Shown here one piece after another: positions 1 to 443 of a stretch of DNA of 724 nt. The stretch lies in the NCBI RefSeq assembly GCF_003334335.1, contig NZ_QOWQ01000153.1; one strand, given 5' to 3'. This stretch comes from Escherichia coli (GTDB lineage Bacteria; Pseudomonadota; Gammaproteobacteria; Enterobacterales; Enterobacteriaceae). Position 1 is the stretch's first letter, and every line of letters begins with the position of its first letter. Under the pieces are notes generated by a model that saw only the letters and a program-made list of their open reading frames with translations, did not search any database and was not told the origin of the DNA. Both the position numbers and the translations under genes were made by a program.

Positions 1-443
1 GCAAGCACCTCATTTTTTGTTGGGGTGCTTTTTTTCAATTCAGCGATATAGCACTCCAGTTTTTCAATGCGTGATTCAATATCATCGTTTTCTGACCGCA
101 ATGCCGTCGGTGGCGTCTTCAGAGAACCAGTAATTATTCCCGGTAGTTTTCCTCTGTAGGTTATCAACACATCCTGCGCCTCTAAAATTATGGGGCGCTT
201 TTCCGGCGACTGCTCATCCCCTTCACATAAAGCGGCAGCAATATCCATGAAAAACTGCTTCGCCTGTTTTTTCGCCTCAGCTTCGTAAAATTCCAGCGTG
301 GCACCTTCAGTACGGTCAAGACTAATCGCCACATTTGGCAACAACAGTGACGGATACCCACCAATTTCCAGTGCCACAGTAACAGTAATCTTATCCGGGT
401 AATTATTTATCCCTTTAACAACCAGTTTGTATTGTTTATTCAT
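1..443 (-). CDS. Hypothetical protein, function unknown; 5'-complete, 3' end beyond the window (at least 147 aa); not a recognisable endolysin
   Basis: Hand translation of the minus strand from ATG at 443..441 gives an uninterrupted frame to the window edge: MNKQYKLVVKGINNYPDKITVTVALEIGGYPSLLLPNVAISLDRTEGATLEFYEAEAKKQAKQFFMDIAAALCEGDEQSPEKRPIILEAQDVLITYRGKLPGIITGSLKTPPTALRSENDDIESRIEKLECYIAELKKSTPTKNEVL... The other two minus frames carry stops (e.g. at 10..12 and 35..37). A 147-codon stop-free run is unlikely by chance at about 44% GC. The ATG lies 4 nt after the holin stop and is preceded by GGGGAGAG, and is the first start codon after the in-frame stop at 506..504. Absent from the supplied ORF track. 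Confidence 0.75.
   Translation of the reverse strand, partial: MNKQYKLVVKGINNYPDKITVTVALEIGGYPSLLLPNVAISLDRTEGATLEFYEAEAKKQAKQFFMDIAAALCEGDEQSPEKRPIILEAQDVLITYRGKLPGIITGSLKTPPTALRSENDDIESRIEKLECYIAELKKSTPTKNEVL

Follow-up and report, generated by a model that had tools for sequence, protein, structure and literature searches.

A YdfR/DUF1327-family gene between holin and lysozyme in an Escherichia coli prophage, and the convergent genes beside its relatives

The closest described relative of the gene analyzed here is ydfR (b1555) of the Qin prophage of Escherichia coli K-12, which lies 4 nucleotides (nt) after the S21-type essQ and before the R21-type rrrQ. Only one functional study of ydfR was found. 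In a two-hybrid screen that recovered K-12 YdfR, residues 1–72 suffice for contact with RNase E, and the full-length YdfR fusion scores only with RNase E 1–597, the catalytic N-terminal half (Gopel et al., RNA Biol 2026; PMC13232886). Strep-YdfR co-purifies FLAG-Rne 1–598 from lysate together with RNA resistant to DNase I, and overexpression of ydfR does not slow growth (PMC13232886). Unlike phage RNase E modulators, YdfR has no demonstrated effect on RNase E activity (PMC13232886). Searches of the functional literature for DUF1327, PF07041 or "YdfR family" found no study. Here, we describe a 724-nt stretch of an E. coli genome (contig NZ_QOWQ01000153.1), referred to as the window. It is the reverse complement of the late region of a lambdoid prophage and carries on its minus strand a holin gene followed by the beginning of a ydfR-like gene.

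Three small phage proteins, T4 Srd, T7 gp0.7, and phiKZ Dip, reportedly contact RNase E and reshape mRNA decay, T4 Srd being said to target its N-terminal half. Their likeness to the ydfR-like protein is a functional analogy only; no relation in sequence or fold was found. They are encoded by early genes of virulent phages, and the ydfR-like gene is a late gene of temperate phages. With respect to gene organization, the nearest parallels are the lambdoid morons and the anti-CRISPR-associated and anti-CRISPR (Aca-Acr) genes, small accessory units between essential late genes in which a conserved gene stands beside diverse cargo. The DUF1327 genes resemble them in that a cassette is inserted at many late-gene junctions and its partner gene has its own intrinsic terminators. 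Unlike these units, the DUF1327 gene leaves no room for a promoter of its own and is governed by the late operon, and the cargo is convergent instead of co-directional. Unlike Aca, DUF1327 has no helix-turn-helix domain and no demonstrated regulatory activity.

We tentatively read the ydfR-like product as a late cytoplasmic RNA/RNase E-binding accessory protein, functionally linked to head-on cargo genes, and give this composite reading a probability of about 0.4. The head of the protein would act as in K-12 YdfR, contacting the catalytic half of RNase E, RNA, or both, and the protein would affect cytoplasmic RNA turnover late in infection and not the cell wall. It would neither time nor execute lysis. 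Together with a convergent small gene, its gene would make up a mobile cassette of two genes, in which it is the forward one. Q-modified polymerase might read through the cargo gene, and the ydfR-like protein might handle the ensuing antisense RNA conflict in one of two ways: it might either shield the late transcript or eliminate that of the cargo.

The open reading frame (ORF) behind the holin gene is a member of the YdfR/DUF1327 family, already known and catalogued, in its usual place. DUF1327 (PF07041) is its sole significant Pfam match (i-Evalue 3.8e-41, query 1–112 against model positions 1–92 of 93), and the protein shows 43% identity with K-12 YdfR over residues 3–74. The earlier note on this DNA, made from the sequence alone, had named ydfR/DUF1327 as a precedent and had argued against amidase folds and the features of an endolysin or membrane protein; both judgments were correct, and the protein is not a spanin either. 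Among PHROGs, five families of unknown function with a common N-terminus are matched, including 2091, 1085, 406, and 2735 (E values 6e-32 to 8e-93). RefSeq names the gene "YdfR family protein", a name also borne by the 211-amino acid (aa) NCBI protein cluster with 644 members; no NCBIfam model matched the ORF. The window is a 100% match to E. coli JE86-ST05 NZ_AP022815.1 1211118–1211841; the locus surrounding this match is labeled L001 below. From position 443, the frame is open to base 1 of the window, whose edge cuts the gene after 147 codons. In the identical prophage, it is intact, with 211 codons (636 nt) ending at L001 8917. The encoded protein is acidic, with an isoelectric point (pI) of 5.5, and soluble, with no membrane or export signal. 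His and Trp are both absent from its first 147 residues. The absence of His on which the earlier note had relied holds for these residues and not for the full protein, as the tail beyond the window contains two. The ratio of nonsynonymous to synonymous substitution rates (dN/dS) over codons 1–72 is 0.14–0.57 in informative pairs, which corresponds to purifying selection, and the gene is therefore real; on the linker and tail, dN/dS was uninformative, substitutions being too few.

Aligning 17 homologues reveals a modular organization, in which a conserved head is followed by a linker, a heptad helix, a short module, and a variable tail (table 1). AlphaFold2, run on a 33-sequence alignment, models head residues 1–72 at a predicted local distance difference test score (pLDDT) of 80–97 as a beta-beta-beta-alpha fold, with strands at residues 5–14, 18–27, and 37–43 and a helix at 50–74. 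The beta-rich N-terminal part proposed in the earlier note corresponds to the three strands, and the long helix had been overlooked. The family motif L-E-F-Y-E-A-E-A-K-K-x-A-K sits in this helix. Among the 17 closer homologues, K-12 YdfR included, 20 positions of the head (residues 1–75) are invariant: Y5, L7, V9, K10, N14, R44, E46, G47, A48, L50, E51, F52, Y53, E54, A55, A57, F65, A69, L72, and E74. K-12 YdfR shares all of the residues invariant among closer homologues, and the head of the window protein aligns with the K-12 residue 1–72 fragment that binds RNase E 1–597. In the set of 33 diverged members, M1 and Y53 never vary and E54 hardly does. The family is small: in a search of 1.84 billion representative proteins, only 111 clusters of relatives were found. 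Foldseek matches in AFDB50 at E ≤ 0.001 are all of the DUF1327/YdfR type (probability 1.00), the organisms named being Escherichia, Shigella, Salmonella, Hafnia, Yersinia, Providencia, Morganella, and Rosenbergiella. A PDB sequence search with the family profile returned coiled-coil noise only (E ≥ 0.05), and Foldseek with the full-length model found nothing in the PDB below E = 0.1.

Beyond the head, the family is variable, with lengths from 72 to 333 aa. In the model from the deeper alignment, residues 77–118 stay below pLDDT 50, and in the full-length model (mean pLDDT 55.6) the remainder of the protein is helical at low confidence. The linker occurs in two alternatives, the module CSEERYTIQINN... 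being found in P0074, P0089, and P0116, and the linker region is missing from the 72- to 76-aa forms. The heptad helix that the earlier note had picked out is also predicted in the model, at residues 122–138 with low confidence. Its PDB matches are coiled coils only, the P22 gp26 needle and GCN4 (E 0.05–0.8), and it is probably an oligomerization coiled coil. Homologues carry it with or without a 28-residue insert. It is followed by the short module RRDEQFAAFYDYC and then by a C-terminus that is either a ...KSLQ ending or one of two unrelated domains of about 100–130 residues. The approximately 130-residue domain (...MLKRLGRCMGLLQVAAEIEA...DFDNPPFKxVPxxWxxPGxxYLxxR) is present in P0004, P0050, P0078, and P0097 and in the distant P0181, P0194, P0203, P0222, and P0229. 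It is thus found on close and very distant DUF1327 heads, stands headless in P0229, and belongs to no Pfam family. The second domain (...FLKVER) occurs in P0008 and P0116.

Table 1. Features of the window and of the identical prophage locus L001 (window coordinates unless L001 is stated)
Feature	Position	Strand	Basis
Class II (S21/pinholin-type) holin, 71 aa	448..663	-	ORF list, RefSeq, PHROG, EssD identity
Holin-ydfR junction	444..456	-	Sequence: GGAGAG 456-451, TAA 450-448, GGCG 447-444
YdfR/DUF1327-family gene, codons 1-147 of 211	1..443	-	Translation, identical prophage, Pfam, PHROGs, NCBI cluster
DUF1327 core, residues 1-74	222..443	-	AlphaFold2, conservation, dN/dS, K-12 YdfR alignment
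Variable linker, residues 75-118 (CEGDEQSPEKRPIILEAQDVLITYRGKLPGIITGSLKTPPTALRSE)	90..221	-	pLDDT < 50 in both models
Heptad helix DDIESRIEKLECYIAELKK, residues 120-138	30..86	-	Low-confidence model; PDB coiled-coil matches
Terminator-like hairpin and U-run inside the ydfR-like coding sequence	3..38	+	Consensus scan, RNA fold
ydfR-like gene, full 211 codons	L001 8282-8917		Identical prophage
Convergent 86-aa gene, phrog_2572, just past the left end of the window	L001 8865-9125	+ (window)	
R21-type SAR lysozyme, 177 aa	L001 9237-9770		Triad and phrog_7 endolysin match

K-12 YdfR differs from the window protein in size and surroundings. It has 103 aa, a length that the earlier note had given correctly, made up of the head and a short helix, and its gene abuts the lysozyme gene with no convergent partner. 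In the 211-aa protein of the window locus, the head is extended by linker, coiled coil, and a tail whose coding sequence overlaps the convergent 86-aa gene. Other long YdfR proteins, gp05 of Stx2 phage 86 (268 aa), gp52 of 2H10 (183 aa), and the PhiR5_1 protein (211 aa), have the same slot, head, and linker. In 2H10, gp52 has the same ...KSLQ tail and the same convergent gene (88 aa there) as the window locus and lacks the 28-residue insert STPTKNEVLAADEMKE... that holds the window hairpin described below. In Stx2 phage 86, gp05 carries a C-terminal domain of approximately 130 residues instead of the coiled coil and tail, and the partner is a different one, phrog_1853.

The earlier note had seen an unknown protein in the slot usual for the signal-anchor-release (SAR) endolysin. 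The endolysin is not replaced: a canonical R21-type SAR lysozyme, with the SAR-like N-terminus MNAKIKYGLSAAVLALIAAGASAP and the triad EGNHTTAYRDGAGIWT, starts about 320 bp past the ydfR-like stop. In L001, the ydfR-like gene is followed by the convergent 86-aa gene, a 112-bp gap, the lysozyme gene, two small ORFs, and a spanin-like gene. The endolysin slot is shared, not taken over. The negative features listed in the note were borne out. A scan of the 147 residues for the E-x8-[D/C]-x5-T lysozyme triad gave no match, and they contain no transmembrane or SAR segment. Their highest 19-residue Kyte–Doolittle mean is 1.18, at residues 22–40, which are predicted beta strands. The Pfam search gave no match to Phage_lysozyme (PF00959), and for holin or spanin features there was neither a hydrophobic segment nor a match in PHROG or Pfam. 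The endolysin, spanin, and antiholin readings were rejected, there being no triad, no transmembrane or SAR segment, and no matching family. A noncanonical lytic enzyme degrading wall or membrane is favored by the position within the lysis cassette and by nothing else. It has against it the lack of a catalytic motif and export signal, the 74-residue beta3-alpha head, a set of holin, SAR lysozyme, and spanin-like genes that is already complete, and the finding that overexpression of K-12 YdfR is not toxic (PMC13232886). We regard it as very unlikely, with a probability close to nil.

The holin of the window is named "class II holin family protein" in RefSeq, matches phrog_9876 and phrog_20, and is 80% identical to EssD of DLP12. 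Its N-terminus (MYQMEK..., 652–663 on the minus strand) has Met codons at positions 1 and 4, which we take to be the arrangement of the S21 dual-start holin/antiholin pair. The Shine–Dalgarno-like sequence at the junction lies within the last holin codons, and the ydfR-like ATG (443–441) follows the holin stop after the 4-nt spacer. The same 4-nt spacing to the DUF1327 start was observed in PhiR5_1, Stx2 phage 86, 2H10, Qin, mEp460, PhiR42_1, and Evi, that is, with the present locus, in all eight E. coli phage or prophage contexts checked. Only 4 nt behind the holin gene, the ydfR-like gene lacks the promoter space of a moron, an autonomous unit of promoter, gene, and terminator. Since the gap leaves no space for a separate promoter, we infer that the gene is expressed from the Q-dependent late transcript.

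This fixed spacing behind a class II holin might indicate a lysis-timing regulator, a role also suggested in the earlier note, acting through contact with the cytoplasmic tail of either pinholin or SAR endolysin. The K-12 ydfR deletion moreover figures in supplementary hit lists of the Paradis-Bleau envelope-leakiness screen (PMC3879167). As K-12 ydfR abuts the lysozyme gene, the result of the screen could be a polar effect on that gene, and the protein is soluble, with no membrane segment. In DLP12, whose holin is of the same kind, the lysozyme gene follows directly, and this cassette works without a ydfR-like gene. The ydfR-like gene is therefore an optional insert, variably present behind this class of holin, Qin having the gene and DLP12 lacking it. 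The phage 21 lysis cassette presumably works without it as well.

The distant relatives also bear on this point. Ten distant family representatives were looked up, together with eight IMG/VR loci from a narrower alignment. Stand-alone heads of 72–76 aa are located in lambda-like tail clusters, at the M/L, L/K, and I/J junctions and between the genes for the tail chaperone (GT) and the tape measure protein (H). Two longer forms among the ten lie between antiterminator Q and holin. All ten are on the late-operon strand, 4–30 nt behind the preceding gene. The DUF1327 family is not lysis-specific. As its distant members are found in tail clusters, or after Q and before a holin of a different family, a role linked specifically to pinholin or SAR lysozyme is disfavored, and we consider a lysis-timing role decidedly improbable. 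Of the roles suggested in the earlier note, moron-type or accessory cargo remains the closest. A tblastn search of a phage collection with the distant members returned the E. coli type only.

What recurs in these contexts is a convergent neighbor. The next gene is convergent in 9 of the 10 representative contexts and in all 8 IMG/VR loci, and a convergent partner is likewise present in PhiR5_1, Stx2 phage 86, 2H10 (unannotated there), and Evi. The 3′ end of the partner lies 10–50 nt past the DUF1327 stop, and 65–180 nt of noncoding sequence separates its start from the next late gene. Among the other neighboring genes, partner excluded, the minus-strand share is about 4/65. Overall, tight adjacency of DUF1327 gene and partner was found in 17 of 20 distinct contexts. 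The partners belong to at least eight mutually unrelated families (BLAST; hhalign probability < 8%) and have no significant match in Pfam, PADLOC, or NCBIfam. Three of these families occur at two sites each: the Evi partner family at S/R in Evi and at M/L in L028, a family of 70-aa proteins at M/L and at I/J, and phrog_1853 at S/R in Stx2 phage 86 and at Q/S in L009. As one partner family recurs at different insertion sites, the DUF1327 gene and its partner appear to move as a unit. At the present locus, the 86-aa partner is acidic (pI 4.3), its 3′ end overlaps the last 53 nt of the ydfR-like gene, and it is 91% identical to the unannotated ORF in 2H10. One 184-aa convergent partner (L018 3488–4042, minus strand) contains ...LNQIRNQFAHKL..., an R-x4-H motif as in HEPN RNases, with no hidden Markov model support.

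From this pattern, DUF1327 could mark an undescribed mobile two-gene cassette of Enterobacterales siphophages that lets the phage carry head-on cargo in its late transcript, a generalization that we put forward as doubtful. Such a cassette would comprise a late-driven gene for an RNA/RNase E-binding protein, a shared terminator hairpin, and a convergent, autonomously transcribed cargo gene from one of at least eight unrelated families. It would hop between the late-operon junctions S/R, Q/S, M/L, L/K, I/J, and GT/H. The shared element enabling this would be the DUF1327 protein, which would either control the conflict between sense and antisense RNA or silence the cargo as lysis begins. In the searchable literature, we found no description of this two-gene pattern.

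The same adjacency, in 17 of 20 contexts, could reflect a partner-specific antidote or regulator. Cargo expressed by the prophage, for example for defense or exclusion, would then be neutralized or regulated late, through a protein contact involving the variable tail. In agreement with this idea, tails co-vary with partners: the ...KSLQ ending goes with the 86- to 88-aa family and the long C-terminal domain with a 104- to 105-aa partner family, even at a different insertion site. In addition, the DUF1327 gene is driven by the late operon and the partner has its own terminators. However, the conserved part of the protein is the head, yet at least eight partner families show no detectable homology (hhalign < 8%), the 72- to 76-aa forms are tailless yet still paired, and no partner matches a known defense family. 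A partner-specific antidote thus appears unlikely. Alternatively, the protein might have an independent accessory function, for example in anti-defense or host takeover, unrelated to RNase E and to the neighboring gene. The family is small, fast-evolving, and phage-restricted, its C-terminal domains can be swapped, and it lacks an annotated structural relative, as would suit such a role. Against it, PADLOC-DB contains no defense family for the protein (the lone match is Cmr5, E = 0.018), the sole experimental data point to RNase E and RNA, and adjacency to convergent genes would be left unexplained. We rate an independent function as distinctly unlikely.

Several observations weigh against our preferred reading, a late RNA/RNase E-binding protein linked to head-on cargo. 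Contact with RNase E is known for the K-12 homologue only and with overproduced protein, the co-purification had no nuclease control and may be RNA-bridged, and ydfR overexpression alters few transcripts (PMC13232886). Structural similarity of the head to the double-stranded RNA-binding domain (dsRBD) reaches no level of significance, and its K-K-x-A-K-like motif lies in the middle of the helix, whereas the dsRBD, with an alpha-beta-beta-beta-alpha fold, has KKxAK at the N-terminus of its last helix. Three lineages, Qin/PhiR42_1, mEp460, and the tail-cluster locus L014, have no partner, which shows that the DUF1327 head can persist without one. Part of the co-occurrence might simply follow from physical linkage. 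At the present locus, the convergent partner has two terminator-like hairpins of its own, but no convincing sigma-70 promoter for it was found.

The first of these hairpins lies in the window opposite the ydfR-like ORF. It has a 10-bp stem and an 8-nt loop (plus strand, 3–30), with a U-run (UUUUUUU) extending to position 38. Its predicted free energy is −15.5 kcal/mol (z = −4.5), and none of 200 shuffled sequences was equally stable. Judged from sequence, it is terminator-like and placed as a second terminator of the convergent partner to the left of the window would be. The hairpin sits in the 28-residue insert (STPTKNEVL...), carried by only some family members. A second, stronger terminator hairpin of the partner strand is located 21 nt past the partner stop (L001 8844–8817, AAAACGCCGCG...CGCGGCGUUUUU); U8 follows it in 2H10. 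This hairpin encodes KRRDEQFAAF of the ydfR-like protein, which suggests that this module and the 211-aa tail may owe their sequence partly to the terminator and 3′ end of the partner. In ten loci with stand-alone DUF1327 genes (L008, L011, L016, L017, L019–L021, L028, L029, and L032), the DUF1327 stop is spanned by a GC-rich palindrome, (A)AGCGGCC-loop-GGCCGCT(T), which encodes the ...EAA that recurs at the C-terminus of these proteins. The palindrome resembles a bidirectional terminator common to the DUF1327 gene and its partner.

These overlaps raise the question of whether the ORF is decaying or partly meaningless, its tail past about residue 175 being read-through of the partner terminator and 3′ end. 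The derivation of KRRDEQFAAF from the partner hairpin and the overlap of the last 17 codons with the partner gene are consistent with this, as are the substitutions too few to demonstrate selection on the tail, the existence of relatives of up to 333 aa with an extra C-terminal domain, and the label "incomplete; missing C-terminus" given by the Prokaryotic Genome Annotation Pipeline (PGAP). On the other side, the 211-codon frame is open, intact in PhiR5_1, and represented by the 644-member NCBI cluster. At least 80% of the gene length is found in 144 complete genomes, and the head is under purifying selection. Decay or a meaningless tail is highly improbable in our view. The PGAP label belongs to JL003_RS27975 (L001 8282–8623), marked as a pseudogene. 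The flag is probably an annotation artefact of comparison with longer relatives, the 211-codon architecture being annotated as an intact coding sequence (CDS) in PhiR5_1. A pseudogene in the strict sense was rejected because the frame is open over 211 codons and is an intact CDS elsewhere.

The family is widespread among coliphages. It is carried by PhiR5_1, Stx2 phage 86 (gp05), many Stx1a and Stx2c phages, 2H10, mEp460, and Evi; the PhiR5_1 protein XSB41308 (211 aa) is 97.6% identical to the present one over its full length. The earlier note would have taken its reading as refuted if the ORF proved to be a conserved, characterized part of the canonical cassette. The ORF is indeed conserved and catalogued in cassettes of this type, those of Stx phages, 2H10, mEp460, Evi, and Qin, although its function is unsolved. 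Among 5426 complete E. coli genomes, 2882 have DNA similar to the ydfR-like gene, at 6149 places in all, compared with 8935 places for the holin; the 144 genomes mentioned above are the complete E. coli genomes in which the match covers at least 80% of the 636 nt of the gene. The locus thus contains no noncanonical lysis system: the gene belongs to a named family, more than half of the complete E. coli genomes have similar DNA, and an intact endolysin gene lies nearby. A protein made alongside the lysis proteins of Stx-converting and many other lambdoid prophages has, since 2026, one lead, to RNase E. Should this lead extend to the forms carried by phages, temperate coliphages would possess a late RNase E/RNA factor with a bearing on how stable the long late transcript is. 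If the pairing is functional, DUF1327 would serve as a guilt-by-association marker for new accessory or cargo genes of prophages, and as a model of how phages tolerate head-on genes within an essential operon.

Upstream of the holin gene, the region from Q onward (L001 2399–7986), in which no stx genes are annotated, is the usual Stx-phage-type cargo region of the prophage. It contains genes for a DNA methyltransferase, tRNA-Ile, two tRNA-Arg, TerB, DUF3927, a SASA esterase, DUF1378, and DUF826.

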